Shown here one piece after another: positions 861-25,600 of a DNA stretch of 64,000 bases; the first letter of the stretch is position 1, and every line of letters begins with the position of its first letter. The translations under genes were made by a program, and so were the position numbers. Under the pieces are notes generated by a model, which was not told where the DNA came from, did not search any database, and was given only the letters and a program-made list of their open reading frames with translations. Location: NCBI GenBank assembly GCA_041746255.1, contig JBGTHM010000037.1:29297-93296 (forward strand). Direction: 5' to 3'. This DNA is from Fibrobacteria bacterium (lineage in GTDB: Bacteria > Fibrobacterota > Fibrobacteria > UBA11236).

Positions 861-886
861 GTCGTCGTCCACTCTGTTAGGAAATA

Positions 887-2152: not shown

Positions 2153-2155
2153 CCT

Positions 2156-3310
2156 ATGGAACCAAGCCAAGAATCCACGATTGCAATCCGTCGTCTCGTG
2201 ATTGTGCGTCCGGGACCCGTCCATGAATTGACTTCCACGGCTAAACGGGAAATGCTTCGCCTGTCCGAGGAATTCGGCGGATACCTGCTGGTGACCATGC
2301 CCGAGCCACGACCGGTGAAAGTGGGAAGGTTCGAATTCCGTCCCTTGCGCTTCCACCCGAATTCGCACTTGCTTACGAATATCCGATATCTATTCCATGC
2401 GTTGGGCCTGGCTGTGCGGTTGAAGGCCCAAGGGAAGGCGCCCGATCTTATCGTCAGTTACGATCCTATCCGTTCCGGACTGATCGCTTTGGCTATGGCC
2501 CGAATAACGGGAGCACGGTTTATTTGTGAAGTGAATGGAGTCTATAATTCCGACGCGAACTATCTGGATGGCGGCGCCTCGTATTCGTCGCGCTTAAAGA
2601 GGAAGCTATTCCCCCACATCATCCGATTCGTATTGGAAAGAGCGGATGGAATCAAATCGCTGTTTCCGGGCCAGGTGGATGGATTCGGAATCGTAGTGGC
2701 GCAAAAGCCGAAAGTGCATTTCCATTCCTTCGTGGAATTGTCCGCCTTCAGAAACCTGGGAGAATCGAAGCAAATACTTTTCGTGGGTTTTCCATTTTTT
2801 CTCAAAGGCGTCGATTTGCTTATCGAAGCCTTCAAGCGAATCAGTCCCAAGTATCCGGAATGGGAACTGAAAATCATGGGATGGTTTCCGGATGATAGAG
2901 AGTTGAGGCAGGCCATGGACGGCCATCCACGCATCCGCCATCAACCGCCGGTCCTGCATTCGGAGATAGCCGCGCATATCGGCGTTTGCGGAATGCTGGT
3001 CCTACCCTCGCGCACCGAAGCGATGGGACGCGTCTTACTCGAAGCCATGGCCTGCGCGAAACCACGAGTTGGCGCGCGCATAGAAGGTATTCCCACGGTG
3101 ATTGAAGATGAAGTAGACGGTCTGCTCTTCTCTCCCGGTTCGGCTTCCGAACTTAGTGAAAAGCTGGATCGTCTGATGGGAGATCCCGCGTTACGGCGAA
3201 AATTGGGAGATGCCGGTCGCAGAAGATTGAGCCGCGATTTTAGCGAGCAAGCCTACTTTTCCCAAGCGTTCGATTTTTACCGGGGGGTAATCGAAAATGT
3301 TCCCAGGTGA
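2156..3310 (+). CDS. GT4 family glycosyltransferase
   Basis: KGVDLLIEAF, LPSRTEAMGRVLLEAMA, GIPTVIEDEVDG. Confidence 0.9.
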   Translation: MEPSQESTIAIRRLVIVRPGPVHELTSTAKREMLRLSEEFGGYLLVTMPEPRPVKVGRFEFRPLRFHPNSHLLTNIRYLFHALGLAVRLKAQGKAPDLIVSYDPIRSGLIALAMARITGARFICEVNGVYNSDANYLDGGASYSSRLKRKLFPHIIRFVLERADGIKSLFPGQVDGFGIVVAQKPKVHFHSFVELSAFRNLGESKQILFVGFPFFLKGVDLLIEAFKRISPKYPEWELKIMGWFPDDRELRQAMDGHPRIRHQPPVLHSEIAAHIGVCGMLVLPSRTEAMGRVLLEAMACAKPRVGARIEGIPTVIEDEVDGLLFSPGSASELSEKLDRLMGDPALRRKLGDAGRRRLSRDFSEQAYFSQAFDFYRGVIENVPR

Positions 3311-4481
3311 AACTCCTAAAAAGGTGCTGTTCGTGCTCTCACGGGTATTGGGGGGCAAGACCTATTGCAACCATCTTTTAGCGGCATTGGACGCAATGCC
3401 GGAAATAGCGCCGGAGTTCGTCTTTTTCGAAGAGGAGGATTACGCGCGTTTCGCGAACAAAGTGCCCTGGGCCTTTCGCCGAACGGGAAAGTTCATCGCG
3501 TCCCACATTCTCGCCTGGAAGCTGCAAATGCTTCCCCCTAAGAAATGGGATGCACTGTTCGTGCAAAGTTTTGAATTACTTCCCGGGTGCCGCTCCCTGT
3601 TGAGTCGCATGCCTACCATTCTCGCCCATGATTCCACCCAGATTCAATCGTATCGCCTGATGCTGGGTCAATCCCCCACCTTGCTCGATCGCTTGGCTTA
3701 TGGTGTTAAATGCGTAATGACTACGCCTTTTTATGCCCCGACGGTTGCAAGCGTAAACGCTTTCATGCCCCGTACCCGATGGTGCGCGGAATCGCTGGTA
3801 CGGGACTATGGCGTGGATAGGCGAAAAATAGTGATTTCTCCGGCGGGACTCGATTTATCGCATTGGAGGTCCGATCCGATGCGGGAAGAAAATCCCGTCC
3901 CGCGCATCCTGTTCGTGGGGAACGATTTCGCGCGTAAAGGTGGCGGTTTCTTGCTGGACCTTTTCACCCGGCGCCTTTCCGATTTTGCCTCTTTGTGCAT
4001 TGTTTCCCGCGATCCCGCCCTGCGCGGCAGGCGTTTTCCAACCGGAGTCGAGTGGATAGGCGATGCCGCCGGACGGAATCCGGAAAAACTTATCGCCGCC
4101 TACCGACAGTCCGATCTTTTCGTGTTCCCCACTTTGAAGGAACATATGGGGATGGTCCTCACCGAGGCGGCGGCCATGGGATTGCCGATAATTGCGAGGG
4201 ACGTCGGCGGCGTTTCGGAAATTGTCCGTGACGGTGAGAACGGTCTTTTAATGCCGCCCAATGCAGATGAAGCCCGTTGGGAAGCGGCGATTATGCGACT
4301 GTTAAGCGACAAACCCATGCGAGTGCGGTTGGGAATGGGATCGCGTAAGCTGGCGGAGAGGCATTTTTCCGTAGCTGTATTGCGTTCCAGGCTGGCCCAA
4401 GCTCTATCCCTAGCCGCTCCCAGCGACTTCCCTAAGGAGTATGCCCGGAATTTTCACCCCGCCCAATCCGTAGCGGTGTGA
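3297..4481 (+). CDS. GT4 family glycosyltransferase
   Basis: ILFVGNDFARKGG, DLFVFPTLKEHMGMVLTEAAAMGLP, GVSEIVRDGENG. Confidence 0.9.
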   Translation: MFPGETPKKVLFVLSRVLGGKTYCNHLLAALDAMPEIAPEFVFFEEEDYARFANKVPWAFRRTGKFIASHILAWKLQMLPPKKWDALFVQSFELLPGCRSLLSRMPTILAHDSTQIQSYRLMLGQSPTLLDRLAYGVKCVMTTPFYAPTVASVNAFMPRTRWCAESLVRDYGVDRRKIVISPAGLDLSHWRSDPMREENPVPRILFVGNDFARKGGGFLLDLFTRRLSDFASLCIVSRDPALRGRRFPTGVEWIGDAAGRNPEKLIAAYRQSDLFVFPTLKEHMGMVLTEAAAMGLPIIARDVGGVSEIVRDGENGLLMPPNADEARWEAAIMRLLSDKPMRVRLGMGSRKLAERHFSVAVLRSRLAQALSLAAPSDFPKEYARNFHPAQSVAV

Positions 4482-4506
4482 ATCACGGAATTTTCGCGCC
4501 GGATTT

Positions 4507-5187
4507 TCAATCGCGGCTGAGGATGGCATAGGCCGTCAATGCGCTCACCATGATGCTAAGTACCGAAGCCGAGAGCTGAAGAACGTCGGCAAGACGGGTT
4601 GGGTCGGGCGGAATCGGGAGCATGATATCGTCTCCCGAAGCGATACCGGCCTCACGCAAGGTTTTGCGATCGGAAATAGCCGCTATGAGGTTATCGTTAA
4701 CCGGCTTTCCATGGCGCAAATGCGCGGCCTCCCGGATTTTCCCCGGAAGAGGCGGCCCTCCCGCTTCTTTAATCAAATCCCATATCACCGCGTCGGGAGG
4801 AACATAATAATATCCCGGTTCATGTACGTTACCCAAAACCCCTATGCGGATCACCGGCTTGGCGAAAAGGTGCGTATCCCTCAAATAGGGAGTCCATACG
4901 TTTCCAAGGTAAGTCTCGACGTTTTGGCGCGTTTTTCCGGCGATAACGATTTTTCCTACAATCGGAAGTTCCGCCATTCCCATTGCGTCCAGCGGATAGA
5001 CGCCGTTCAAAAAGGATTCGGGATCAGCGGGAACGTCGATGCGCATGGCCTCGCCAATCTGGAAATTTTCTTCCTCGGGAATCGACTGCGAGAGTATGAC
5101 CTCTGAAGCAAGCAGCATGAAAAATCCAAAATACATTGTGCGAAATTCGCCAATCATGCTCGCCTCCAATTTGTTTGGGCATGCCAT
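4507..5187 (-). CDS. Polysaccharide export protein (Wza/Poly_export + SLBB domain)
   Basis: LPIVGKIVIAGKT, VLGNVHEPGYY, IKEAGG, SGDDI, C-terminal amphipathic helix; divergent from the wzc-like gene. Confidence 0.8.
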   Translation of the reverse strand: MACPNKLEASMIGEFRTMYFGFFMLLASEVILSQSIPEEENFQIGEAMRIDVPADPESFLNGVYPLDAMGMAELPIVGKIVIAGKTRQNVETYLGNVWTPYLRDTHLFAKPVIRIGVLGNVHEPGYYYVPPDAVIWDLIKEAGGPPLPGKIREAAHLRHGKPVNDNLIAAISDRKTLREAGIASGDDIMLPIPPDPTRLADVLQLSASVLSIMVSALTAYAILSRD

Positions 5188-5289
5188 GGTGTCAGAACTT
5201 AATTTAAAAGCTGGGATGTTCTTGCGCCAGAAAAACGTTGGGGCGTTTCCAATGAACCGTAATGCAACCGTAATACCGAGGAAAATTCC

Positions 5290-7734
5290 ATGGCACCTTC
5301 CGGACCATCCAAACCGAATGCCTCCTTGGCGGATCTTCTCAATCCCAAGTCGACGCTTTCGTCCTGGAGCACCATTTTACACGTCGCTTATCTCAAGCGT
5401 TGGACCATAGTCACGCTCTGGCTGTTACTTGGAATTCCCCTGGGGCTTTTTTTAATCTTTTTCGATTTACCCAAGACGTACGTTTCCCAGGCTTATTTAC
5501 GTTTCCCTCATGTAGTGGGCGTCGACGATCAAGTGATGCGCGATGTCGCCCTTCGGGAAAAGGAATCCATCGTCCGGCTCTTTCAAAGCTACAATGTACT
5601 GCATCGGACGATTGACGATTTGGGATTGAAATTCCGTATTCGTAACGCGAACGTCTTTCGCCACCATGTCATCGAATCCATCGGCGGGAGCGGATATGCT
5701 CCGGGCCTCTACACTTTCAAATTCGGAAGCGAGAGGCGGCTGAAAGTCTATGCGAAACCGTACGGAAAAAACCAAAAGTATCTCGTCTACAACGACAAGG
5801 TTCCGAATGACAATTCCGTATCTTTCTCCGGTGTGACTTTGCGTTTTAAAAACGGATTCGCGGACATTTCACAGGGTTTCGATTTGGAAATGGTTTTTCA
5901 AGGCGTCGAGGAAGCGCTGAAAACCTATCGGGACCGGATTGAGGTCAGTCCGCTTGACCAAGGTCCCGCCTCCGTCAACTATTCGGTGACGCTTGAAGAT
6001 CGTGATCCCGTGCTGGTTGCGGAAATAGTCAACCGATTGACCGATAATTTCATGGCCGTTTATACCCGTACCACCCAAGGACAGGACAGGACGGTGTTGG
6101 CGCAATTGGAAAAAAGCCTGGAGCTGGCGCGTGAAAAACAAAAACGTGCGGATTTACGTCTCGACGAGTTTTATCGGGCCAATCCCCAGGCGATGTACGG
6201 GCCGCAGGGGACCGGTTTTTCCACCGCCCAGGCAAGCAGCAACCATGCGGAGATTTCCCGCAATTTGGAACGACTGGAACAGACCTTGAGCCGTAAGCCT
6301 GCGTCAGGCGCTCCCGAAGGGGAAAAGCTTCTCTGGATTGATGAAGCGCTTTCGTTATTGAGCGGCCAGGGGGTTTTGCGCGCCGAGGCCATGCGTACAC
6401 AGTTGTCCAATCTCGAATCGGAAAAATCACGCTTGTCCGCAATCCGCACGCCTACACATCCCGATTACCTCGCTTTGGATCGGAAAATGGCAGGTATGAT
6501 CGAGCCGGTGGAGGAGTTGGCGCGGCAGACGCGAGAAAGTTACCGGGTAAAGGTGAGGGATACCGAGGCGACTGTCCGGAGAAATCCGTCCGCCGGGGGC
6601 GGAGGGTTGGCCTTGCAAATGGAGGCGCGCCGGCTGCATTCCGAAAAAGACGAAGCCTCCCAACAAGTGCAAAATTTGGAAATGCAATTCGAGCGCGCTC
6701 GCCTCACTTCCGAAGGCGACCTCTTCGCGGTGACCATCATCGACAGGGCCAGGCCGGCCTTGCATGAAGAATTGGGCCTTAGAGAAAGGGTTGTGATGGC
6801 CTCCGGCGCCGGAGTGGTCACGCTTTTCCCGGGGTTTCTCTGGGTAGTTGCGTTACAATTGCTTTTTCCTCGGGTCTACAACCGCGACGATGCCAACAAG
6901 AAATTCGGCATCAAGGTTTTGGGGTCGCTTTTCGCGATGCCGGGTGGAAAGAGCCGCGATAGGAAGGGAAAAAACATCGATCCCCAACTGCTCTACCATG
7001 GAAGCGCCTATCGTATCACCGACGTGGAGGCCTTCCGAGCCTTAAGGGTCGAGCTGGAGTCCTATTTCCGCGCCGACGGCCATCATTTGGGCCTGATGGT
7101 GACCAGTACCCAACCCAACGAGGGCAAGTCATTGGTTTCCGCCAATCTGGCGATAAGTTTCGCGCGCAAAGGTTGCCGCACATTGCTGATAGACGCGGAT
7201 TTTCGGCATGGCCGGCTCGAAAATATGTTCGGATTACGCCCTGAAAAAGGATTGGTGGATATCCTCCGCAAGGGGGACATACCACAACATGAGGTGCTTT
7301 CCATCGCTGCTGCGCAGCATATCGTACGAACACCGCAGTCCAATCTCTATTTGCTTTCCAAGGGCAATCTGGACGAATACTCCGAAGAAGCCTTTTACGG
7401 CCAGGCCATGGAAAACCTGATGCGGAGGTTGCAAGCCGATTTCGATGTGGTACTGGTCGATACGGCGCCGGTAATCGTCACCGCGGATCCGGTCAAGTTG
7501 GCGGAATGGATGCGGGGCGTGGTCTACGTCATCCGGTCGGGGCAGCCTTCGGCTTCGGAGATATCGAAAGGACTAGAGCGATTCACCGATAGAAATGTTC
7601 CCATCGGATGCGTCATCAATGATATCCGCAAGTCGCCTACCGACGACAATCATTATGCCCGCTATGGATATTACTATGCCAAGATTCCGCATGGCGGTTC
7701 CGGTGTGACGAAACAGCTGCACAAAGCGGAATAG
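5290..7734 (+). CDS. wzc: Wzc/GumC polysaccharide co-polymerase with BY-kinase domain
   Basis: Two TM segments flanking a coiled-coil; Walker A STQPNEGKS, LLIDADFR, VLVDTAP; C-terminal Tyr cluster HYARYGYYY. Confidence 0.9.
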   Translation: MAPSGPSKPNASLADLLNPKSTLSSWSTILHVAYLKRWTIVTLWLLLGIPLGLFLIFFDLPKTYVSQAYLRFPHVVGVDDQVMRDVALREKESIVRLFQSYNVLHRTIDDLGLKFRIRNANVFRHHVIESIGGSGYAPGLYTFKFGSERRLKVYAKPYGKNQKYLVYNDKVPNDNSVSFSGVTLRFKNGFADISQGFDLEMVFQGVEEALKTYRDRIEVSPLDQGPASVNYSVTLEDRDPVLVAEIVNRLTDNFMAVYTRTTQGQDRTVLAQLEKSLELAREKQKRADLRLDEFYRANPQAMYGPQGTGFSTAQASSNHAEISRNLERLEQTLSRKPASGAPEGEKLLWIDEALSLLSGQGVLRAEAMRTQLSNLESEKSRLSAIRTPTHPDYLALDRKMAGMIEPVEELARQTRESYRVKVRDTEATVRRNPSAGGGGLALQMEARRLHSEKDEASQQVQNLEMQFERARLTSEGDLFAVTIIDRARPALHEELGLRERVVMASGAGVVTLFPGFLWVVALQLLFPRVYNRDDANKKFGIKVLGSLFAMPGGKSRDRKGKNIDPQLLYHGSAYRITDVEAFRALRVELESYFRADGHHLGLMVTSTQPNEGKSLVSANLAISFARKGCRTLLIDADFRHGRLENMFGLRPEKGLVDILRKGDIPQHEVLSIAAAQHIVRTPQSNLYLLSKGNLDEYSEEAFYGQAMENLMRRLQADFDVVLVDTAPVIVTADPVKLAEWMRGVVYVIRSGQPSASEISKGLERFTDRNVPIGCVINDIRKSPTDDNHYARYGYYYAKIPHGGSGVTKQLHKAE

Positions 7735-7744
7735 CTTTTACTAA

Positions 7745-8448
7745 GTGATTTTCCGAACCGCATTTTTGAGCCTGGCCGTCATCGGGTTAACCGACAGTTT
7801 AGGCCAATTACAAGATTCCGCCTTCGATATCGCTTCCTTGGAAGCGGAGCTTTTTCCGATTTTCTCAAGCGGAATCCCTCGCTTCACTGGCTCAAGTCCC
7901 CATAGCCGCTTAATGGCCCAAGCCGGCCTGCCCCTGGGAGAGTTTTTCGGTTTGGAGCAATTCCTGGCCTTGCGAGGAAGCTACTCTAATCGCAGTCTCT
8001 ATTTCGACGGCTTCAAGCTTAACGCGGCGATGAATCATCAAATAGGGTTGGGGGCGGGCTCCATGATTATGGATGCCGGTGGGCATTCGTCTTATGCACT
8101 TTTGGCTGTCAGCCATAACGGAGACGATTACGAGATGAAGTCGCGGTATATGGGATGGGAAGCCATATATGTCCATACCTACCGGATTCATGATCGCCTT
8201 TCACTCGGAGCCGGTTTCGATATAATCTTGAATTTTATGCTTTGCGGGCGGGAGCGGATTAGGTTTATCGGGCGGTTGGGGCCGAATCCGGAATGCAATG
8301 GCGGTTTAGGGAAGGCCTGCACTTACGGTTCAAGTACAAATGGATCGCCTGGGGAGAAGAAAGCCTGACTTTGCCCGACGGATCTCGATTGCGCGAGCGA
8401 CCCCTGGACGTTCACAGTCTACGCATCCAAATTGCCTACGGACCCTGA
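7745..8448 (+). pseudogene. Probable degraded outer-membrane beta-barrel protein
   Basis: Signal peptide and amphipathic strands to ~8235; a protein-like continuation (VYRAVGAESGMQWRFREGLHLRFKYKW...SLRIQIAYGP*) lies in another frame ending at 8448 and is preceded by a TAG at 8260. Confidence 0.5.
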
Positions 8449-8480
8449 TAGCCTTCACTAACCGCCGCAACTACCTCCCA

Positions 8481-10502
8481 TCAGGCTTGTTCGGCGAAAT
8501 GATGCAATCCCGGCGGCTCCGGATAGGGCGTTCCTTCGCTAACGGATGGTTGATTCAGCAAGCGCACTTCCACCTTGTTCTCCCGAAAAAAATTACGCAT
8601 CCGCGGCAATTCCATCGAGTCGCGCACCGAGCAAAAATCGAAATGCTGTAAAAGGCGATTCAGTTTCCATTCGGTGCTGTCGGTGTTCACATAATGCTGA
8701 AAAGTTTTTAACAGACCGAGATAATGGCGTTGGTGGTCGAGGTCCAGCTCCCAAGGGTGAAGGTAAATCATGGCGGGTTCGCCATGGGCATTGGCGCCTT
8801 CGATGAACTTTTCCGTCATCGCGAAAGGATATAGGCGTAAATACCCGCCTCCGGCCATGGGAATCATGCCCTTGCCGATTTGCAAGGTGGACATGGGGAA
8901 CTCTTTCAGTTCGTGGCCATTTTCCAGCTGGAGAATATGCGGGAGACGGTTGGGGTAGTCCGGTATGCCATAGCGTTTGCGATCGATAGGGAAAATGCTG
9001 GAATCGTATTGGATGCCGTTACGCGCCAAAATTTCCAATGCCCATAGCGTCGACTTGACAATGGTGAAATTCGAGGCTCGATGTCCGATGACGGGTTGCG
9101 AAGTGAGACGGGCCAAGGCTTCCAGCGATTTGACCAAGTCCGCCTCGAATCCTTCCGGCGTCATGTCTGTAACCAGATTGTGATCATATCCGTGGGTGCC
9201 GATTTCATGGCCTTCATCGGCAATCATGCGCACCACGTCGGGAAAGTGGTCGGCCACCCATCCCAATACGAAAAACGTTCCGGTCGTATCGTAAACCCGC
9301 AGTAATTCCAAAATACTGCGAACGTTTTTCTCAACATTGGTGGGCTGCAGATGCCAGGTGCTTTTGGGCGTTTTGCCTTGCATGTTATAAGCATGGAACC
9401 AGCATTCCACGTCTACCGTAAAGAAATTCCGTACTTCCCGAGGCCCGCATTGCAATTGCACCACCGAATCCAGACGGATTTCCTTGAGGATGTTCTCCAT
9501 CTCGGGATTGGCGCTTTTGATATGCACCTGGCCGCCATGACGTTTGGTGGTATGCGCCACTTCGGTCAGGAAGGCCAGATCTTGCAAGTCCAATTTATTA
9601 CGCGGGCTGATCCAGACTTCCAGGCCCTTTTTTTCCTTTATGGGAATGCGATCGAGTTGCTCTCCGAGATCGGAAGAACTTTCCCCCACCAGAACGTATG
9701 GCCGAACGGACTTTTCGCAACTCACGGTAATTTTCGTCAACTCCTTGTCGTCCACATCCCGGTATTTCCCGCGGAAGGGCAGCAGTTTCGCGCGCCGGAG
9801 CCCCGCCAGATCCCGAACTTCGCCGTTGGAAGAAGGCCGGTGCAGCAAATAGCCGAAGGTGTTTACAATCACCCACCACTCCATTTTTATCCAGGAGGTC
9901 AGGCTGCAAAACGAAGCTCGATAGGAAAGGTCATAATGCGATTTGCGTACCACGCTGTCGAAAGAATCGTCGTATCCCAGTACGATTTGCGCGAAGCCGG
10001 TAATGCCGGGTTTGATATGCAGCGTCCTATCGGAATAATGGGGTAGCGATACGCTGTATTGCCGGGTAAAATGCGGCCGTTCCGGGCGCGGCCCCACCAG
10101 GCTCATGTCGCCTTTGAAAACGTTGATGAATTGCGGCAATTCGTCGATATGCAAGGCACGCAGCCAGCGGCCGCTCCGGGTGATACGGGGGTCATGCCCC
10201 TGTGCGCATAATACTGGACCGTTCTCTTCGGCGTCCAGACGCATGGTCCGATATTTATAGATCAGAAAGATCTTGCCTCCGACGTCCTCGCTCCGTCTTT
10301 CCGGGCCGGAATAATTGCCCCTTCCGCGCCTGCGGCGATTGATTCCTACTCTTTCCTGGGTATACAAGACGGGACCGGGCGACTCCAGCCGGATTATACC
10401 TGCGATAATGGGATAGGTTAATGCCAAGAAGAGGCATCCGACCAATCCGGCTGCCGAATCGAGCGCTTTTTTTGCAATGACTACTAAAAATGCCGGTTTC
10501 AT
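8481..10502 (-). CDS. Fusion: priming sugar (phosphoglycosyl) transferase + STAS-like domain + XrtA/DUF3473-type polysaccharide deacetylase
   Basis: YKYRTM, DPRIT, HIDELPQFINVFKGDMSLVGPRPERP, KPGITGFAQI; then FTVDVECWFH, TFFVLGW, GHEIGTHGYDH, GGGYLRLYP, YLHPWELD. Confidence 0.9.
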   Translation of the reverse strand: MKPAFLVVIAKKALDSAAGLVGCLFLALTYPIIAGIIRLESPGPVLYTQERVGINRRRRGRGNYSGPERRSEDVGGKIFLIYKYRTMRLDAEENGPVLCAQGHDPRITRSGRWLRALHIDELPQFINVFKGDMSLVGPRPERPHFTRQYSVSLPHYSDRTLHIKPGITGFAQIVLGYDDSFDSVVRKSHYDLSYRASFCSLTSWIKMEWWVIVNTFGYLLHRPSSNGEVRDLAGLRRAKLLPFRGKYRDVDDKELTKITVSCEKSVRPYVLVGESSSDLGEQLDRIPIKEKKGLEVWISPRNKLDLQDLAFLTEVAHTTKRHGGQVHIKSANPEMENILKEIRLDSVVQLQCGPREVRNFFTVDVECWFHAYNMQGKTPKSTWHLQPTNVEKNVRSILELLRVYDTTGTFFVLGWVADHFPDVVRMIADEGHEIGTHGYDHNLVTDMTPEGFEADLVKSLEALARLTSQPVIGHRASNFTIVKSTLWALEILARNGIQYDSSIFPIDRKRYGIPDYPNRLPHILQLENGHELKEFPMSTLQIGKGMIPMAGGGYLRLYPFAMTEKFIEGANAHGEPAMIYLHPWELDLDHQRHYLGLLKTFQHYVNTDSTEWKLNRLLQHFDFCSVRDSMELPRMRNFFRENKVEVRLLNQPSVSEGTPYPEPPGLHHFAEQA

Positions 10503-14222: not shown

Positions 14223-14253
14223 AAAAAAGGCCCCGTCATTTCTGGCGGGGCCT
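14223..14253 (-). terminator. Intrinsic terminator downstream of the sigma factor gene
   Basis: Minus strand AGGCCCCGCCA-GAAA-TGACGGGGCC-TTTTTT. Confidence 0.85.
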
Positions 14254-14297: not shown

Positions 14298-15110
14298 TTA
14301 GTTGCTCAACGCCTGGAGATAGCCTTCATATTTCTCGCGAAGGACTTCCTTATTCTTGTTCTTGCGGATGCGACGCAGGGCCTGGTCGCGCAACTGACGT
14401 ACCCGCTCATGAGAGATATTCAGGGTTTCACCCACTTCGCGCAGCGTTTGCGGCGCTTCGTGATTGATGCCGAATAAGCCTTTGATGACCTGGGCTTCAC
14501 GCTCGGGCAATTCCGAGAGAAGATCCTTGGCCAAATGCTCCACGGCCTGAATTTCCGCTTCGGCTTCGGGATTTACGGCCTTCTCATCCGGCAAGACCTC
14601 TTGATAAGTGGTCTTGGTGTCGGTTTTCAAAGGAGCGTCGAAGGAAATGCCGGCTTCGCCAAGTTGAATCAACTCGCGGATGTCATCGCTGAGCTCCTTA
14701 CCCTTGGACTTTTCCTTCAGTGCCTTGCGAACGCGCAAATGCTGATTGGCGGGAAGGCGGATAAGCGAACCCTGCTCATTGATGGCACGGGTGATATAAG
14801 CCTTAATCCACCAAACGGCGTACGAAATAAACTTGAGGCCGCGGGAATGGTCGAAGCTCTCGATGGCTCGAATCAAGCCCATGGCGCCCTCGCTTACCAG
14901 GTCCGGCAGCGGAATGGGGCATCCCCGGTATTGCAGGGCGACTTTAAGTACGAAACGCATGTTGGCGCTGACCAGTTTTTCGCGGGCCGCACGATTTCCT
15001 TCACGGCAAAGCTTGAAGAGCATATGCTCGTCTTTGCGGTCGATAGGACTGGTCTTGCGGATATCTTCCAGATAGCGCTTAAGAGTCTCGTCGTTGGTGT
15101 CGAAGGTCAT
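14298..15110 (-). CDS. Sigma-70 family factor, RpoD/RpoS-like, lacking region 1.1 (270 aa)
   Basis: Region 1.2 LKRYLEDI, region 2 ANMRFVLKVA...DLVSEGAMGLIRA...KFISYAVWWIK, region 4 TLREVGETLNISHERVRQL. Confidence 0.93.
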   Translation of the reverse strand: MTFDTNDETLKRYLEDIRKTSPIDRKDEHMLFKLCREGNRAAREKLVSANMRFVLKVALQYRGCPIPLPDLVSEGAMGLIRAIESFDHSRGLKFISYAVWWIKAYITRAINEQGSLIRLPANQHLRVRKALKEKSKGKELSDDIRELIQLGEAGISFDAPLKTDTKTTYQEVLPDEKAVNPEAEAEIQAVEHLAKDLLSELPEREAQVIKGLFGINHEAPQTLREVGETLNISHERVRQLRDQALRRIRKNKNKEVLREKYEGYLQALSN

Positions 15111-15144
15111 CTATTTTCCTTTTTGCGGGTTCGATTTTATAGTA

Positions 15145-15160
15145 AGCAAGAGTCATTCCA
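15145..15160 (-). promoter_or_regulatory. Sigma-54 (-24/-12) promoter of the sigma factor gene
   Basis: TGGAATGACTCTTGCT = GG-N10-GC with TTGC; about 35 nt before the ATG; AAGGA RBS downstream. Confidence 0.65.
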
Positions 15161-15222
15161 TCAAGGGTTCCATCAATTTAAGCCGAAAAACGAAATACAC
15201 ATGAAGTTTTTTCCAATATAGT

Positions 15223-15375
15223 GTCATTCATTGTGACTGTATCGATAATAAGTCAATAAATATGACTTATAGACCCCTTAGACTCAAAGAACACCAATCT
15301 ACTTTGTTTCATTCTTGCAAAATAGCAGTAAATGTTCGGTAACAAGCCCATTTGAATGTCATAAATAATGACATT
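15223..15375. promoter_or_regulatory. Three GTCA-N7-TGAC palindromic operator/UAS sites
   Basis: GTCAttcattgTGAC 15223-15237; ATAAGTCAataaataTGACTTAT 15248-15270; AATGTCAtaaataaTGACATT 15355-15375. Confidence 0.75.
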
Positions 15376-15434
15376 TTGGGTTATTTGGGCTAATCGTCGC
15401 TCTATAATAAAAGAAAAACCATTGGGAATAAGCC

Positions 15435-15462
15435 TCAAGATTTACTCCTGGAAGGTCGATAG
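15435..15462 (+). promoter_or_regulatory. Sigma-28-like promoter of fliD
   Basis: TCAAG-N15-GTCGATAG resembles TAAA-N15-GCCGATAA; lies upstream of fliD. Confidence 0.6.
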
Positions 15463-15534
15463 AGAAGGAGGAGAGCCGGGTTTCCGGCCTCAAAATAAAA
15501 GCCGGGATTCCGGCTGATAGGCTGGACTAAGGAT

Positions 15535-17580
15535 ATGAGCAGTAATTTATCGGTAGGAGGGTTGGCATCGGGGCTGGATATCAACAGTATTATCGATGGC
15601 TTGGTCCAGATTGAGCGTCGCCGCGTCATGCGCGAAGAGGAAAAGAAAAAAGCCTATGAATTGAAGCAAAAAACCTTCAACGATTTGAAGACCCGCATAG
15701 CGGATTTCAGCGCCAAGGCCAAGGCCATGGATGACGTAAAAGCCCTGAACGTACTCAAGACTTCCTCTTCCAACGACACCATTGCCCGCATCATCGGGGA
15801 TAAAGACGCTGCTCCCGGTAATTACGACGTAAAAGTCCAGAAACTGGCCAGCTCACTCAAGGTGGCTTCGAAATCATACGCTTCCGATGTGACGGCCCTC
15901 GGTCTTTCCGGTTCTTTTCAAATTTCCGTTTCGGCGGAAGCCCTGAAAGCCGATCCTACCGTCACCTCCGTTGCGGTGGATATTGCGGCGGGGGATTCCT
16001 TGCGCGACGTGGCAGCCAAAATCAACCGGGCCAAGGGCACGGGCGCAACCGCTTCCATTGTGAACATGGGGAATAACGACTTCCGCCTTATGCTCTCCGG
16101 GACGGACGAAGGGACCAAGGGCTTCACCCTCACACCCACTTCGGGAACTACGATTGGCGCGGGTGGACTGGGAATCGTTTCTTCCGGCGAATCGGTACGG
16201 ACCAGGTTTGATTTCAAGAACGCGGAAGGGGGGCCGGCTACTGCCGCGACCACTTTCGCCAACTTGTTCTCGGGCATTGGAGTCGGATCGGCCATTACCG
16301 ACAATGACTCCATTTCCTGGACCGCCACGGACGCCAACGGCGATCCTCAGGATGGCTCCTTCACGATTTCCAACGCGGCGACCATGACCTTGCAGGATTT
16401 GCTGGCGGCCGTAAAGGCTGAATTCGACGATGGAGGGGACAAGGTGGATGTCTCCCTGAATTCCTCCGGAGAAATCGTCGTATCCGATAAAACCGGGGGC
16501 ACTAACGATATTGTTCTTTCCTTCTCCTTTACGGATGCAGACGGCTCGGGCTCCTCCCTGACCATGGGCGCCGCCGAAAACAAGACCTCCTTTTCCAATA
16601 CCGTGTCCGAAGGCCAAAAGGCTTTTTACATGATGAATGGATTGGCGGTTTCCTCCCAGGGAAACAAGGATAGCTCGCTCATACGCGGAACGACCTTCGA
16701 ACTCTTGAAAGTCGATACGTCTGAAAGCGTGAAGCTCAGCATGCAACGCGATGAGGCGGGGGTCAAGCAAAAGGTACAGGATTTCCTGGATAGCTATAAC
16801 GCCCTCATCAAGTTTTTAGACGAGCAGTCGAAAGTGACCGTGGAAGAAAAGAAGGAGGGGGGCGCTACCGAAACCGTGGTGAAAAAAGGCCCCTTCGCCG
16901 GCGACAATACCATTCTCGGGCTCAAGAACCGCCTGCGCGATATCATTACGGGTTCCGTGAAGGAGTTGACGGAAAACAACTTGAGCAAATACAACAGCAT
17001 GGCGAGCATCGGAATCACTTCCAACAAAGCGGACGGAACGCTCAGTATCAATAATGAAATGTTCGAAAAAGCCGTTGCCACCGACTTCGAAGGCTTGCGG
17101 CGCCTTTTCGTAACCGCGGGCTATTCCGATAACCCCCTGCATGAATTCGGTACGCAGTCCAAGGATACCAAGGCCGGAGTCTATGCCGTCGACGCGGGAG
17201 CCGATACCATCGGCGGGGTGGCCGTGAATCGCCTGGGAGATCTGCTCCAATCCACGGCCGGAGCCACCAAGGGCCTTATGGTAAAGGCTCCCGCCGGCAG
17301 CGGAACCGGAAACATGGTCTTCGTTCGCGGAATAGCCGGCCAACTCAGCCAGTTCTATACGCAAATCAACGACTTCGTTGACGGTACCTTGACCGCCACC
17401 AGCAAAGGTATCCAAAAGCGCATCGCCGACTCACGCGGGCAAATCGAAAAGCTGGAAGACCAGGTTTCGAGGTATAAAGACCGTCTTATCAAGCAATTCA
17501 CGAATCTGGAGCAGTCGATATCCAGGCTGCAATCGCAAAGCGCATCGTTTCAAAACCAAATGTCGGGATTAAGGAGATAA
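15535..17580 (+). CDS. fliD: Flagellar filament cap protein FliD
   Basis: GLASGLDINSIIDGLV N-terminus, VQDFLDSYNAL, MASIGIT, C-terminal QFTNLEQSISRLQSQ. Confidence 0.95.
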   Translation: MSSNLSVGGLASGLDINSIIDGLVQIERRRVMREEEKKKAYELKQKTFNDLKTRIADFSAKAKAMDDVKALNVLKTSSSNDTIARIIGDKDAAPGNYDVKVQKLASSLKVASKSYASDVTALGLSGSFQISVSAEALKADPTVTSVAVDIAAGDSLRDVAAKINRAKGTGATASIVNMGNNDFRLMLSGTDEGTKGFTLTPTSGTTIGAGGLGIVSSGESVRTRFDFKNAEGGPATAATTFANLFSGIGVGSAITDNDSISWTATDANGDPQDGSFTISNAATMTLQDLLAAVKAEFDDGGDKVDVSLNSSGEIVVSDKTGGTNDIVLSFSFTDADGSGSSLTMGAAENKTSFSNTVSEGQKAFYMMNGLAVSSQGNKDSSLIRGTTFELLKVDTSESVKLSMQRDEAGVKQKVQDFLDSYNALIKFLDEQSKVTVEEKKEGGATETVVKKGPFAGDNTILGLKNRLRDIITGSVKELTENNLSKYNSMASIGITSNKADGTLSINNEMFEKAVATDFEGLRRLFVTAGYSDNPLHEFGTQSKDTKAGVYAVDAGADTIGGVAVNRLGDLLQSTAGATKGLMVKAPAGSGTGNMVFVRGIAGQLSQFYTQINDFVDGTLTATSKGIQKRIADSRGQIEKLEDQVSRYKDRLIKQFTNLEQSISRLQSQSASFQNQMSGLRR

Positions 17581-17586
17581 AGCGGC

Positions 17587-18015
17587 ATGACCAGCACATC
17601 CTATAAGAATTACAGGAAAGCCGATATTGGCACGGCGGACAGGGGCAAGTTGGTAATAATGGTATATGACCATTGCATCAATTGGCTGAAACGGGCCGAA
17701 GGGGAAGCCGCCGCTCAAAGTCATGGCGATTCGATTCGCTCCCTGCAAAAAGTCCAGGCGGGACTGACCGAGTTGATGTGCTCCTTGGATATGGAGGTCG
17801 GGGGCGCCATGGCCCGTGATCTTTTTTCCCTTTACGATTTCTACTCGCGCCATTTGACCCAGGCGGTGACCGACAAGTCCGTACAACCCATACGCGATGT
17901 GGAGGCCATGATGGTTACGCTTCGAGGCGCCTGGTTGGGAGCCATCGAAAACGTCCGCAAAGAGGGCGGAGTCAAGTTCCCGGAAAAGCCTGTCGGATTG
18001 TCCATCGTCTCCTGA
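17587..18015 (+). CDS. fliS: Flagellar export chaperone FliS
   Basis: TADRGKLVIMVYD, ELMCSLDMEVGG, LFSLYDF, LRGAW. Confidence 0.93.
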   Translation: MTSTSYKNYRKADIGTADRGKLVIMVYDHCINWLKRAEGEAAAQSHGDSIRSLQKVQAGLTELMCSLDMEVGGAMARDLFSLYDFYSRHLTQAVTDKSVQPIRDVEAMMVTLRGAWLGAIENVRKEGGVKFPEKPVGLSIVS

Positions 18016-18028
18016 GGAAAAAGTGAAA

Positions 18029-18448
18029 ATGCAAACGCTCACGCAGCAAATCGTAAGTAACCTCGACGTTCTCTTCGGCCTGTACCAACTGGCCCTGGAT
18101 TATGCCAAGAAGATAAGCCCGGAAGAGGAAGAGGAGGCGCTCAAGTGGATTGGCTATCGGGCGAAAATCCTGGACCGTACCGAGCATGTTTCGCGCGAGG
18201 CAGCCGCCATGCTGCGGGAATTCGACGCGCTCAGGAATGTTCCAGCCGCCGAGCGGGCTTTGGTGGAGGAGAAGCGCAACCTTATCCAGGACCTCTCCTT
18301 CAAAATGAATCATGTGGACAACCTGCTGTTGCGCAACCTGCAAACCCGCTTGGCGGATGTACGCCAGGAACTTGCGGTTCAGAATCACCGCAAAGACGCC
18401 ATCAAGGCCTATATTCGCGCGCCCGGCGTCACCTTCGCCGTATCCTGA
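18029..18448 (+). CDS. Helical protein, probable FliT/FlgN-like flagellar chaperone
   Basis: Follows fliD-fliS; GAGG RBS; all-alpha character; ends ...AIKAY. Confidence 0.55.
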   Translation: MQTLTQQIVSNLDVLFGLYQLALDYAKKISPEEEEEALKWIGYRAKILDRTEHVSREAAAMLREFDALRNVPAAERALVEEKRNLIQDLSFKMNHVDNLLLRNLQTRLADVRQELAVQNHRKDAIKAYIRAPGVTFAVS

Positions 18449-19263: not shown

Positions 19264-19670
19264 ACCCTTCCTTTTCCTCCCCGGTCTCCGCAGGCCGTGA
19301 GCGGGATGATTCACTCCGGTAGGGGACATCAGGCCCGCGCAACGATAGCAAATTAATCCCACTTTTTTTGCTTGAAGGCCGGCTTGAGCGCCATCCCATG
19401 GTTATTAACTTAGTGTCGGGAAAAATCGAGGGGAGCAATCTTTTAAAAACGGGGGTTTCTCCCTGGGGACTTCCTCCGGCTTTTTCGTATAATATTTTCC
19501 CATAACCCTTTCCGGCATTTCCCTATGCATGCAACACCGACCCGGAGCGGCATTCAAGGAGGTGTTGGGAATGCGAAAATGCGCAAACAAAGCAGACAGA
19601 ACGTGATGGTATCGTATTCTTCGCTGAGCTGCCGCAAGACACCCCGGTCTTGTCGGGATTGATAGGGAAC

Positions 19671-22600
19671 ATGCCCCCGTATCCCCGCCGCGTCAGATTT
19701 TCCTTGTGGACCCTGGTGGCCGTGCTTACGGTTCCTCCCGTCTTCTCCGTGTATCAAGAGGGCCAGGAATATTTGACGATCCCGGAATCGGCGGAGCCGC
19801 TCAAAGGCCTGCTTCCCCAAAAAGGGGTGGAATCCACCGGGGGACAGGGTTATCTCAAGGTCAACAGTCAGCATTTGAAGCGGCGGCATAATATCAATTT
19901 CGATACCCGAGAAGTGGAAATTGTGACCTATTTCCAATTGCCCTCTACGGACCTGGATTCCACCGGAGGGGGAACCGAGTCCCAGGTTCTATGGCAGGCC
20001 TATTACGACGAACTCAACTCCTATTCGATGGATATGTACGATTTGGCGTTGCGACGGCAATGGTTGAATCAATTCATCGGACAACAGAACATCACCGACG
20101 GCACGCAGCTCGGGCTTTTCGACATCGTGTTGCCCGTGGCGGTTCCCGATTGGCTTCGGCGCGTGGGTGTGGACAAACCGAGGTTGCATATCAATGGTTC
20201 CTACAAATTGGTGGTGGCGGGAACCAGTCTATCCGGAAGCGGCTCCCCTACCGAAGACGGCTGGTTTCCGAATTTGCATATGGACCAGCAACCCGCCTTT
20301 TCCGTGAAAGGTTCGATAGGCCGTCTCATCAATATCGAAATCAACAGCGAAGACGGCTTCGGATCCAATCTCAAGGAGCAGCTTAAGATCACCTATAAAG
20401 GCGAAGGCGACGAGCTGGAAGACGATATCATCCAGGAAATCGAAGCCGGACATACTTCTTTGTCGCTAACCGGCACCGATCTTACCGGCTATACCGAAAC
20501 CCACAAGGGTATGTTCGGACTCAAGATGCGCATGCGTTTCGGAGGGCTGGATGTGACGACGCTCGCAGCCCAGGAAAGCGGCTCGCATGAGCGTCAGAAG
20601 CTGGGCGGCGGAAGCGAGGCCCGCGAATTCCAGATTGAAGAAAAGAACATGTCTTTGCATAAGCATTTTTTCATGCTGCTTTCCGACCGCGAGGCGTACC
20701 GGACGGGGGGAGGAACCGAAGCCTACCGTCGCGAGGGGCGCCAGAGAAACCCGGTGGAAGTGTATCAATTGCTGGAGCCGACCCAGGAAATCACTTTCAC
20801 CGATAGTTCCGTGGCTTATGTTCTGGGCCCGGACGGGGAAAAGCTGAATAACTTCGCGCCGATTCCCGGACGTTGGAAACAGGTTCCCACCGGCGATTTT
20901 TATTACGACGAGCCTCTGCGTATGCTTACCGTGAACGCCGGCCATCGCAACGCTTCGCTGGCCGTCCGCTTCAAAGACGATCCCTTGCCTTCGAATGCCG
21001 GCTTACAACGAAAAGAACTCATCCTTATCCACTCCCGCAGCCCGGGCCACCAGCAATTCCTGGATACGCTGATGTGGCGCGGGGTCTACAATGTGGGCAA
21101 GGTGAACAGCGACGAACGCAATAATTTCAGAGTGCAGGTCAAAGACAACGAAGGCCGCGAAAGATTGCCGGGCGATAGCATTTCCTATGCGCGCCGGTTG
21201 GGGTTGGAGCAGCGCGAGCGGCCCGGGGTACTCGATTACGATAATCGCGAGATTTTCAATTTCGACCAAGGGTATATGGTATTGCCTTGCCTGAGTTCCG
21301 GCCTTGCCGGCCAAAACGGGGATAGGGAAAATTGCCTAACCCCCATGCGGCGCATCAGCCTGGTTGAAGACAAGAACTCGCCCGACATTTACAATACCTC
21401 GCCGGATGAATTGCACTCCCTTAATTCCACTCGTCAATTCACGGTTTTCGGTCGCCAACGCCAATCGACTTTCAATGTGCGCGAAAGCTCGCATGCGGTG
21501 AGCGGCTCGCAATGCATCGATATTCAGCCGGGTACCGAAAAGCTGGTGCTGAACGGCTCCACGGTTTTGGATAAAGACAGGGATTATGAAGTCTTGTACG
21601 AAACCGGGCAAATCACCCTGACTTCGTTGCGCGCGCGCGATCCCTCGGCGGATATCGAGATCAGTTATGAATGCACACCCCTGTTTCAAATCCAAGACAA
21701 AATCCTTTTGGGTACGCGCCTGGAATACAAGCTCGACCGCATTTCCGATGAAAGCATGCTCGGCGCCACCCTCCTATATAAAAGCCAGACCACCTCTGAG
21801 GAACGCCCCGATTTGGGCCGCGAGCCTTTCAACCAAGTGCTTTGGGGTCTTAACGCCCGATTGACCGGCAATCCCCGTTGGATGACGGATATCGCCAATT
21901 TGTTTCCTTTCGTGCAGACCGAAGCGCCTTCCAGAGCGAATTTCGAATTCGAATTGGCGCAAACCCGCTACAATGCCAATACCAAGGGCGAGGCTTATAT
22001 CGATGATTTCGAGAACAGCCAGAGTACCATTTCCATGCCCATGCATATCAACAGCTGGTTCAAGGCTTCTCCGCCCGGAAATGTTCCGGAAGACGAATTC
22101 ATCTTCGACGAAAACTTCGATTATAAGCATAAAGGCGAGTTCATCTGGCACTCCAACCTTCGCGAGCAATACTCCCGCATTTATGGCAATACCGGTAACA
22201 GCCTCACCAACAGCCGCGAACTCAATTTGCTTATGTTCATTTTCCGTCCCAACGACAATCTGGTAGGCAATTCATGGGGCGGAGTGATGCGGGCCATGAG
22301 TCCCGGGCTCACCAACCAATCGCGTCGGCGTACGCTCGAGGTGGTGGTGCAAGGGCGAGAAGGCAATCTCTATGTGGACATGGGCGAGATTTCCGAGGAT
22401 GTGGGCATTGCCGGTTTCGAACCCAACCGCAGCCTCGACTCCGAAGTACCGCCGGGCGAATATATCAACAAGCGTGATGCCGGCCTGGACAATCGAACCA
22501 AGGATGATGGGGAGATGGGACAGCGCTGGGAGTGTAAGCCCTCCTGCTTTTCCATCCTCGTTGATTCGACCAACGCCGATCCCGCCGGCGACAATTACGA

Positions 22601-25600
22601 CGAAGACCAGCGGGAAAAAGGTATCACCCACCCCAACGCCAGCATCAACGGCACCGAGCTCAATAACCAGGGGGCGGGCGGCTATCAATATGATACCGAA
22701 GATTTGGATCGCTCCGGCACACTGGATCTCACCAACCGCTATTTGCGCTACGAAATCCCCTTGGACAGCGCCTGCACGCGCCAGTTCCATTGCGAAATCT
22801 TGCAAAGGGGTTGGCGTAAATACCAGATTCCGATTTACGACGCCGGTACAATCATCGACAACAACAACTCCGCGACCACCCGCGAAATCCTATCCAATGT
22901 CAAGATGATGCGCCTGTGGATGGGAAAATTGCCCTCACGGGTTTCCCAAACGGAGCTCCGACTGGCACGCGTCAACATCGTGGGCCATACCTGGGAGGAA
23001 GGTGACCGAAACCGGGATTTCGAAATCCCGGGGGGCCTGTTCGCTTCCGGTAATTTGCAGGGCAATCCCATCGAACTTCCTCCGGTGGTGTCGGACAGCA
23101 ACCGGCTCCAAATCGAAGTGGTCAACACGCAGGAAGACAGCCGCTACGTCCCGCCTCCCAGTTGGAAGAAGGAGCGGGATACCCGCACCGACGAGCCTTT
23201 GCCGAATCGCGCCCTGGTGCTCAAATACGAAAACCTGCATCCAGGCGAAATCGTTCACGCCACGCGCATTCTCGGAAGCGACCCCAAAGACTTGACCCGC
23301 TACAGCCGCATTTTGATGGCCATCCATCCTGATTCCATCACCGCGCTGAATCGGAGCGATCCCAGTTCGGGCAACCCCGCATACCGGCAACACAAGGTGG
23401 CCGTGGCTTTGCAATTGGGTAAGGACCTGGGCAACCGGGAATCGCGCGATTATTACGAAATACGCGTCAATCTGGATACCACCGTAACGCCCGGTCTCAC
23501 CCATAGGGATCTTTGGGATCGCAACTCCTTCAATGTCCAATTGCAGGATTTGACCGGCCTCAAAACCGATCCGCGCTACTTGGAATTCCGCGGACGCAAG
23601 GTGAGTCGCAATATCCATCATCAAGGCAGGGGAGACAGTTCCGTCGTGCTGTCGGTGGTTGGGGATCCGTCTTTGTCCCGTATCGATTGGATGCGGTTGG
23701 TTCTCTACGTGGACTCGGTGGGAGTCGTGCCTTTGCAGACGGGCCAAATCTGGATCAACGATTTGCGCCTGGAAGGGCTGGATAACTCGCTGGGAACAGC
23801 GGTACGAACCCAGCTTCAGCTTGAGTTCGGTGATTTCATCAATATATCCGGCAATATGAAATACCAGGACGGGGGCTTCACGTCCATGAGCCAGACTAGG
23901 GCCACTCCCGCCAATTCCATGTCCAGCGCCGATTACAACACTAATTTTTCACTTTTCGCGAATAAATTTTTCCCGGATGAATGGGGGCTCAGCCTACCCC
24001 TCTCTGCCATTTTCCAGGGAAGGGTGGATAGGCCTTTCACCAAGCCCTCCTCTGATCTGGGTCTTACGGGAACGGGTTTTATGAGCATCGTGGACGATAT
24101 TCTTGACGGGAGCCTGCGTCCCGATGAGACCGACCCCGAAAGCAGGCTTTCGCGATATTATCAATCCACCAATTTTCAGGAGCGCTATACGGCCAGCTAC
24201 AAAAAGGAGAGACGATCGGATAATTTCCTGGTGCAAACCTTTTTCGAGCGTCCGGAAATCGTGTACAGCTTTGCGGGAACCGAACGGGAAACCTTCTTCG
24301 ATGCCAGCGATAGCCGAAATTATAAGACTCGGTTGACTTATAACCTGTCACCGTATAGCAATGAAAGCCTGCATCCCTTCAAATTCTCCGAGGGTTGGAA
24401 GTTTACCCCCGGCTTCGTGAAGAATTTCACCATCACTCCCTTGCCGGAAAAACTCAATCTCACCGTAGGCGACTTGTCTTATGTACGCACGCATGATTTA
24501 TTCAAGCCGATAGACGACTTGGATAACCCCGTCAACAATACCAATTACAACATCGAACTGACCCACGGCCTCGACTTGGAATGGCGACCTCTGACCTTTA
24601 TGAATTTCGGCTACCGTCTTTCGGTGAACCGGGATTTTGATAGGGATTACCAATGCTTCGACGACAGTTTCTTCAACTTCGAGCAGGAGCAAAGCGGCGA
24701 TGCCTGTCAGGCAGGAGTTTTCGCCTACAAATACCTTTTCGGCTGGGACGAAGATATCGTCGATCTCGGAAATGGGGAAAGCGGGCGGCGCTTGGGCAAT
24801 CGGTATTTCATTCTCGACCGGGAACGCAACCGGAACCAGAGCTTCCATCTCGATATGAACAGTTATACCATCCCCTGGTTCACCCCGCGGGCCGGGTTTA
24901 CTTCGGGTTATCGCCACACTTTCGCAGAAGCGAACCGCAGCTTGGTGGACAATTCCGTTACGGAACCCGAGCGCTTCGAGGCCAATTCCGACCATGAGGT
25001 GAAATTATCGGGAAGCTTCAGCCTGCCGGGATTGCTGGGGTCGCTCAAGGATAAAATGCCCGTCCTGGAAGGGGCGCGTAAGAAAATGGACGACTGGCGG
25101 CTACGTAACATCGACGTGAATTACACCGTTTCAAATCGCTATAACGGCGAGAAGTTCACTTATCAATTCCTCGACGAGAAGGATCTTTCGCCCTGGGACC
25201 TCTATCAATACCAATTAGGGTGGCTTTACAATTTCGGGAATTTGGCCACGATTTTCAATGGGGAGCCCCAGCCGAAATCCTTCGGCTATCAAATGCAGCC
25301 GGCGGATACCAATTTCCAGGATGATTTCAATCATCGGGTGGAGAGGAGTATTGATATCGGGTCAGGCTTCACACTTCCGATCATCGACCTTAGCCTTTCG
25401 GGGAATTCCCGGTGGTGAAGAAGTTATACCCTCTATCGGGGCGCCATTCAGCCCAGCGACACGTCCCAAGTCTTTCCCGACTATACGGTAATGGCCACCT
25501 TGAACGATTTTGCGTCCAAAATCCCGATTTTGCGCCGGCAATTCCGGTCTATGACCGCAACCAGTAATTTCAACTATTTAAAAGAGGATAGGTGGGCGCC

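Follow-up and report, generated by a model that had tools for sequence, protein, structure and literature searches.

A candidate sigma-54-dependent control region upstream of a short sigma-70-family gene, conserved across Fibrobacterota

The stretch of DNA analysed here, 64,000 nucleotides (nt) of contig JBGTHM010000037.1 from a Fibrobacteria bacterium (hereafter the window), carries a gene for a short sigma-70-family protein that diverges from the flagellar genes fliD and fliS. The 425-bp, A+T-rich spacer between them holds (i) a sigma-54-type -24/-12 element directed at the sigma gene, (ii) three enhancer-like palindromes, and (iii) a sigma-28-type promoter directed at fliD (Table 1). All of these had been picked out in an earlier note, and each lies where that note placed it: the GG and GC of the -24/-12 element are 10 nt apart, the same predicted start is obtained when C15146 is taken as -12, and the palindrome centres fall at exactly the distances given when measured from that start.

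Table 1. Features of the sigma gene, the spacer, and the adjoining flagellar genes, in window coordinates.
Feature	Position	Strand	Description
Likely bidirectional terminator	14228-14253	both	G+C-rich hairpin with T-runs on both strands
Sigma-70-family gene	14298-15110	-	270 amino acids (aa); Pfam Sigma70 regions 2, 3, and 4
Shine-Dalgarno-like AAGGA	15117-15121	-	6 nt ahead of the ATG (15110); relatives show AAGGA or GAGG there
Predicted transcription start	15134	-	From C15146 as -12; 24-nt leader containing AAGGA
Sigma-54-type -24/-12 element	15160-15145	-	TGGAATGACTCTTGCT; GG and GC exactly 10 nt apart
Enhancer-like palindrome 1	15223-15237		GTCATTCATTGTGAC; centre 96 nt upstream of the predicted start
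Enhancer-like palindrome 2	15252-15266		GTCAATAAATATGAC; centre 125 nt upstream; within a perfect 8+8 inverted repeat, 15248-15270
Enhancer-like palindrome 3	15358-15372		GTCATAAATAATGAC; centre 231 nt upstream; within a perfect 8+8 inverted repeat, 15355-15375
Sigma-28-type fliD promoter	15435-15462	+	TCAAGATT, 11-nt spacer, GTCGATAG
Long hairpin in the predicted fliD leader	15474-15515	+	-28.2 kcal/mol, z -2.98; outside the sigma-gene module
fliD	15535-17580	+	Divergent neighbour of the sigma gene
fliS	17587-18015	+	Downstream of fliD

The -24/-12 element departs from the consensus TGGCACG-N4-TTGCW at two positions, both in the -24 half after the GG, and the C of its -12 GC lies 36 nt from the ATG. 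The looser pattern TGG-N8-TTGCW occurs nine times in the window (4.16 expected). Only the copy at 15160-15145 lies between genes and points at a start codon, the remaining eight being inside open reading frames (ORFs) or antisense to them. One of these, TGGCATTGCAGTTGCA at 61658-61673, is an excellent match that at first sight looked intergenic. It appears to run antisense within a short ORF on the minus strand that encodes a lipoprotein-like signal peptide and is probably a chance occurrence, and the seven further matches lie inside genes.

The evolutionary behaviour of the element was followed in 80 related sigma-gene loci (labelled L001, L002, and so on), whose sigma proteins are 72-100% identical to that of the window and which come from a scan of one genome per species. 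Of the 80 loci, 61 have the strict motif TGG-N8-TTGC at -130 to -20 relative to the start codon; its background frequency of 1.40e-4 per position (2.56 million strand-positions) predicts 0.0156 occurrences per such stretch. When the 59 distinct contexts are compared, variation is found in both flanks and in the five bases between TGG and TTGC, with the TGG and TTGC columns themselves near-invariant. Fixed contacts amid drifting surroundings are the pattern that a functional site is expected to produce. The window's clade carries TGGAAY-N5-TTGCT, and the genus Fibrobacter carries TGGCAC/T-N5-TTGCT, often as a perfect TGGCACGCAACTTGCT. A sigma-70-like pair, TTGATG-N17-TATAAA, overlaps the element in the window; it is already destroyed in L001 and does not account for the conservation.

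All three palindromes are of the form GTCA-N7-TGAC, which occurs four times in the window against 0.44 expected, a number reached in none of 100 shuffles. Within at most 450 nt upstream of the sigma genes (35.6 kb altogether), 56 such sites are found in 23 loci, compared with seven in the other 1.24 Mb, a density 279-fold higher. The half-sites GTCA and TGAC align in three columns in the window's clade and the 7-nt spacers vary between genomes, which is true even of L001. Fibrobacteraceae have an N8 form (11 sites in 11 loci, three elsewhere), and upstream sites with other spacings amount to none for N5, N6, and N9-N11 and two for N4. The two promoter-proximal palindromes lie 22-31 nt apart and the third a further 70-116 nt upstream. 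In the window's clade the palindromes are found about 95-125 nt upstream of the predicted start, which is the usual enhancer range for sigma-54 promoters. The only Rfam matches of the window are tRNAs, none of them in the spacer. The earlier note had named conservation of the motif and the palindromes in orthologs as a check on its reading, and both are conserved. Because they recur in the related loci, the -24/-12 element, the palindromes, and the fliD promoter are judged to be far more than chance matches. Across Fibrobacterota the elements keep their positions and are specific to this gene family.

Two other features lie close to the promoter. The sequence TTCCATCAA occurs twice, 12 nt apart, at 15156-15176 (TTGATGGAA on the minus strand), so that TGGAA recurs one turn ahead of the -24 half; of the two copies, just the proximal one is followed by TTGC with the proper spacing. 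Eleven loci of the window's clade (L002-L006, L008-L011, L016, and L018) share a nearly invariant block, AAAACCTTTACAAAT, which begins or lies about 25-43 nt upstream of the TGG and thereby between the -24 element and palindrome 1; the window has a weaker version at 15196-15215. A DNA-bending protein or a second regulator may bind there. Visual inspection of the stretch from palindrome 1 to the promoter revealed no IHF consensus.

The protein encoded by the sigma gene contains regions 1.2, 2, 3, and 4, lacks region 1.1, and resembles group 1/2 sigmas. The earlier note had called it RpoS/RpoD-like, and its best matches are indeed RpoS and then RpoD models. RpoS models head the NCBIfam matches with 195 bits for TIGR02394 (cut-off 378.7) and 182.1 for NF004207 (cut-off 394), and the RpoD C-terminal equivalog TIGR02393 scores 168.7 bits against a cut-off of 354. 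The protein is below both family cut-offs, and an identity as RpoS is not demonstrable. The best 25 of 51 NCBIfam matches are RpoS, RpoD, RpoH, SigB, or sporulation-type models, with no FliA model among these 25. Similarity to SigA, SigB, and RpoS chains in the PDB is about equal. In the alignment with PDB chains, the ERVRQ helix of region 4.2 is kept, and the residues aligned with the -35-reading helix match those of the SigA and RpoS chains. The protein has WWIKAY in place of the WWIRQA or WWIRQT of SigA and RpoS chains as well as a shorter region 3.0, and because of these two differences the -10 element that it recognises may be a distinct one. Longer homologs were sought in order to find a canonical long RpoD in Fibrobacterota, which returned no usefully named protein, and a protein atlas listed only generic short-sigma clusters (phage, Fibrobacterota, and Spirochaetota).

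Downstream, the hairpin at 14228-14253 separates the sigma gene from a convergent M32 carboxypeptidase gene. It is terminator-like on the plus strand, and as minus-strand RNA it folds with -30.8 kcal/mol (z -4.89) and is followed by UUUUUUAU. On the strength of this hairpin, the sigma gene is probably monocistronic.

Close relatives of the sigma protein number in the hundreds, and the named ones are all labelled Fibrobacteres or Fibrobacterota; identities across the phylum run from 60 to 100%. Nearly all of the 80 loci are labelled Fibrobacterota, including bins of Fibrobacter succinogenes (L046, L051, and L053). A maximum-likelihood tree resolves four groups: the window's clade (33 rows), Fibrobacterales (40 rows), a second fliD-linked clade (L023, L024, L028, and L061), and a paralog clade from the same bins (L042, L043, L047, and L068). 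The sigma protein of L001 is 100% identical to that of the window; its spacer has diverged, which makes it a distinct sequence. Six loci (L001, L024, L028, L042, L043, and L076) are labelled Bifidobacteriales or Alistipes onderdonkii, yet their sigma genes and gene order fall within Fibrobacterota clades, so that these labels probably reflect mis-assigned bins.

The other promoter of the spacer faces fliD. A relaxed sigma-28-type pattern is present in 20 of 23 fliD-bearing loci (0.019 expected per 400 nt), loci of the palindrome-free clade L032-L039 among them, and the other three have CGATG for CGATA. The earlier note had proposed an enhancer region shared with fliD and a possible coupling to motility, and the comparison does not support this part of it. 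In 24 of the 80 loci the sigma gene diverges from fliD-fliS. In the paralog clade that neighbour is a radical-SAM gene (4/4 loci), and the palindromes are present in all four loci and the strict promoter in three, L042 having TTGAT. Fibrobacteraceae are without flagella, an inferred loss (PMC4704652). These non-flagellated lineages keep the -24/-12 promoter and, in 11 loci, the N8 palindrome, and orthologs 72-73% identical to the window's sigma are kept in non-flagellated Fibrobacter. Since the module follows the sigma gene, into the paralog and into non-flagellated lineages, and since fliD has a conserved promoter of its own, the link to motility appears to be positional only, and the spacer is best described as two independent control regions set back to back.

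The gene order around fliD is itself conserved. fliS is followed by orf141 (18023-18448; 141 aa, no Pfam family), which also follows fliS in relatives (32-49% identity), and then by ksgA and a gene for a 1922-aa SprA-like protein of type IX secretion (19650-25418), giving a block fliD-fliS-orf141-ksgA-sprA. A sister lineage of eight loci between L012 and L021 (L012-L015, L017, and L019-L021), with sigmas 96-97% identical, is without fliD-fliS-orf141, so that ksgA abuts the sigma gene. These eight loci have no GTCA-N7-TGAC sites, and the -24/-12 element mostly stays; a conserved GGTGGAAT..TATATT lies upstream of it, and four of them have a TGAC-N5-GTCA repeat. Seven of the eight (not L013) have another short sigma gene, 31.6-34.0% identical, at least about 3 kb upstream. 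The one in L019 (277 aa, 32% identical, 3 kb away) scores best to an RpoD model, which is no more than a hint of a separate housekeeping sigma.

The long hairpin in the predicted fliD leader is formed by two paired 15-nt near-repeats, AGCCGGGTTTCCGGC and AGCCGGGATTCCGGC. A similar element is found only in L001, and on the minus strand the distal arm is terminator-like and followed by a T-run. A further fliD arrangement occurs in L032-L039, a fliD-linked clade without palindromes, where all eight loci have GGCAC/T-N5-(A/C/T)TTGCT a few bases upstream of the TCAAG..CGATA of fliD (e.g., L032 9714-10000). fliD may thus have tandem sigma-54 and sigma-28 promoters in that clade.

Sigma-54-dependent transcription calls for RpoN and an activator. 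Fibrobacteres genomes are tabled as 'with RpoN only' in PMC3372290. Six ORFs with a GAFTGA-type signature lie in the flanks of the related loci; all have the Pfam domains Sigma54_activat, AAA lid, and HTH_8 with GAF or receiver domains in front, and three come from the window's clade (L002, L007, and L011). In L002 a GAF-AAA-HTH activator directly follows the sigma gene, and one 41.5% identical to it is found 3 kb from the sigma gene in L052 and L072 (Fibrobacter). Three loci of 80 are too thin a basis for naming the cognate activator. The L002 protein scores below the NorR cut-off (351.8 against 476), and no activator near the sigma gene reaches a curated family cut-off.

The first 10,502 nt of the window (1-10502) hold an exopolysaccharide cluster with glycosyltransferases, Wza-like and chain-length proteins, and a sugar-transferase fused to an XrtA-system polysaccharide deacetylase. 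A receiver-AAA-HTH activator is located within this cluster in L011 (17078-18544) and L007 (17593-19014), with none there in the window; that of L011 comes near the PEP-CTERM-box response regulator model (444.8 bits, cut-off 502.6).

Taken together, these patterns make it probable that a sigma-54 promoter with three palindromic enhancers drives the sigma gene and that a sigma-28-type promoter drives fliD-fliS separately. We infer sigma-54 dependence, the start site, a palindrome-binding protein, and targets for the downstream sigma. Three dimers of one enhancer-binding AAA+ activator would occupy the palindromes and assemble into a hexamer, which would loop to the RNA polymerase-sigma-54 complex held closed at -24/-12 and open the promoter by ATP hydrolysis. 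The product would be a monocistronic mRNA with a 24-nt leader, ending at the terminator (14253-14228) and translated into the 270-aa sigma, which in turn would redirect RNA polymerase to a second tier of genes; fliD-fliS would be driven on its own by the sigma-28-type promoter. The earlier note had suggested a sigma-54-to-sigma cascade analogous to that of Borrelia, and comparative evidence supports it strongly: the conserved promoter, the gene-specific palindromes, the activators in relatives, and the RpoN entries tabled in PMC3372290.

Several points weigh against this picture. The evidence is computational throughout, and the 80 loci are kin, so the 61 motif carriers are not 61 independent events. 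The window's own -24 half reads TGGAAT and not TGGCAC. Nineteen of the 80 loci lack the strict motif. By eye, 11 of these have one- or two-mismatch versions in the same place (among them CGGCAT..TTGCT in L013, GGGTAC..TTGCT in L017, TTGAT in L022 and L042, and TTGTT in L029 and L030), and in eight no -24/-12 element is recognisable (L014, L024, L031, L032, L038, L040, L041, and L049). The 61 include L033, whose motif stands too near the start codon for a ribosome site. In L032-L039 the -24/-12 element of the sigma gene is degenerate and a TTGACT-type element is present, and these loci seem to have swapped to a sigma-70-like promoter. Neither rpoN nor a sigma-54 activator lies in the 64-kb window, and a regular expression for the RpoN box gave zero matches in the 1.28 Mb of loci or the window; rpoN in this genome is therefore assumed from the phylum. 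An activator is found near the sigma gene in no more than three of the 80 loci, and none is tied to the palindromes. The joint absence of fliD-fliS-orf141 and the palindromes from the sister lineage favours a link to motility.

Some of these points lend themselves to other explanations. The palindromes could be operators of an ordinary dimeric repressor or activator, maybe acting on a sigma-70-type promoter, with the -24/-12 element conserved for another reason. The lack of an activator tied to the palindromes would fit, as would the overlapping TTGATG-N17-TATAAA of the window, the TTGACT-type element of L032-L039, and the sister lineage, which has the -24/-12 element without palindromes and a conserved TGGAAT-N17-TATATT upstream. 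This is improbable all the same: the conserved columns are the exact sigma-54 contacts (TGG, TTGC, and a fixed spacing), with the full consensus in Fibrobacter, the window's sigma-70-like hexamers have been lost even in L001, and palindromes 22-31 nt apart at about 95-125 nt upstream sit where sigma-54 enhancers usually do.

Two further explanations place the region within the flagellar system. If the palindromes control fliD-fliS, alone or with the sigma gene, the cascade would belong to the flagellar hierarchy. The divergent arrangement in 24 loci and the joint loss of fliD-fliS and palindromes in the sister lineage point that way, as does the sigma-54-like element on fliD in L032-L039, which would mean that sigma-54 touches flagellar genes in the phylum. 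The half-sites moreover equal those of the proposed Pseudomonas FleQ box GTCaNTAAAtTGAC (PMC6120874). Flagellar control is nonetheless improbable, given that the same palindrome arrangement stands upstream of the paralog beside the radical-SAM gene, that the N8 form occurs in Fibrobacteraceae that have lost flagella (PMC4704652), and that the sigma-28-type promoter of fliD is kept in the palindrome-free L032-L039. Sigma-28 promoters, moreover, need no enhancer. A stronger form of the flagellar explanation makes the 270-aa protein the lineage's flagellar sigma, a FliA substitute expressed through a sigma-54-to-sigma-28 step as in Vibrio/Legionella-type hierarchies; the gene adjoins fliD-fliS, the fliD promoter is of the sigma-28 type, and no fliA is seen in the window. 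This is very unlikely in view of the RpoS/RpoD matches, the absence of FliA from the best 25, the -35-reading helix that matches SigA and RpoS chains, and the orthologs 72-73% identical in non-flagellated Fibrobacter.

The reading of a sigma-54 promoter with palindromic enhancers can be extended to the phylum, with slightly better than even prospects. The region would then represent an ancestral, phylum-wide sigma-54-to-sigma-70-family cascade with one dedicated AAA+ activator, a triple GTCA-N7-TGAC enhancer, and a sigma that is neither RpoS, RpoD, nor FliA. The shift from N7 to N8 in Fibrobacteraceae would imply co-evolution of activator and site. The module would have been duplicated with the gene and have survived the loss of flagella, and it would therefore constitute a core lifestyle switch and no motility circuit.

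To our knowledge, hardly any work exists on gene regulation in Fibrobacterota. Among the main cellulose degraders of the rumen is Fibrobacter succinogenes, and the promoter, the 15-bp operator motif, and the sigma factor are all present in this cultured species, which offers a concrete entry point to regulation in the phylum. A full-text literature search, with supplements and subscription papers outside its reach, returned no description of such a cascade in Fibrobacterota, and the region is a well-supported example, apparently undescribed so far, of a known kind of cascade. If correct, direct sigma-54 control of a sigma-70-family gene would not be peculiar to spirochaetes or flagellar hierarchies.

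The individual parts have counterparts in three better-known settings. The triple enhancer is most like that of NorR at Escherichia coli norV, where three palindromic enhancers are jointly needed by one activator (PMC2831303). Both have three inverted-repeat sites upstream of one sigma-54 promoter; in the case of NorR, these sites are believed to hold three dimers from which the active hexamer is built (PMC2831303). The NorR core motif is GT-N7-AC (11 bp), compared with the 15-bp GTCA-N7-TGAC here and its N8 form in Fibrobacteraceae (PMC2831303); the NorR target is a nitric oxide-detoxifying operon and not a sigma gene, and no NorR ortholog is identified here. The half-sites GTCA and TGAC and the A+T-rich spacer recall the FleQ box of Pseudomonas aeruginosa, which is bound by a sigma-54 activator (PMC6120874). 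That box, a 14-bp GTCA-N6-TGAC with a TAAA core, has a spacer of 6 nt and the sites here one of 7 or 8, so that they fall outside its definition; GTCA-N6-TGAC itself is found nowhere upstream of the sigma genes and 28 times elsewhere. Unlike the FleQ system, the module is kept in non-motile lineages, and no FleQ-type protein is identified. In the polar-flagellum hierarchies of Vibrio and Legionella, a sigma-54 promoter and its activator drive a FliA-type sigma gene. The present locus shares with them a sigma-70-family gene beside flagellar genes and differs in that the target is not FliA-type and is retained after the loss of flagella.

The closest overall parallel is the Rrp2-RpoN-RpoS cascade of Borrelia burgdorferi, in which BosR is an extra factor (PMC2940757, PMC3037356). 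Both have a -24/-12 element directly upstream of a short RpoS-like sigma gene and one alternative sigma controlling another; the Borrelia cascade requires an AAA+ activator, for which a counterpart is presumed here. They differ in phylum, and the sigma described here is below the RpoS cut-off. Rrp2 of Borrelia reportedly needs no defined enhancer to act. The region in Fibrobacterota has three conserved palindromic sites, in an arrangement that is phylum-wide and present in two paralogs. Should the ancestral cascade be confirmed, it would be the counterpart of Borrelia RpoN-RpoS in the Fibrobacteres-Chlorobi-Bacteroidetes (FCB) group.

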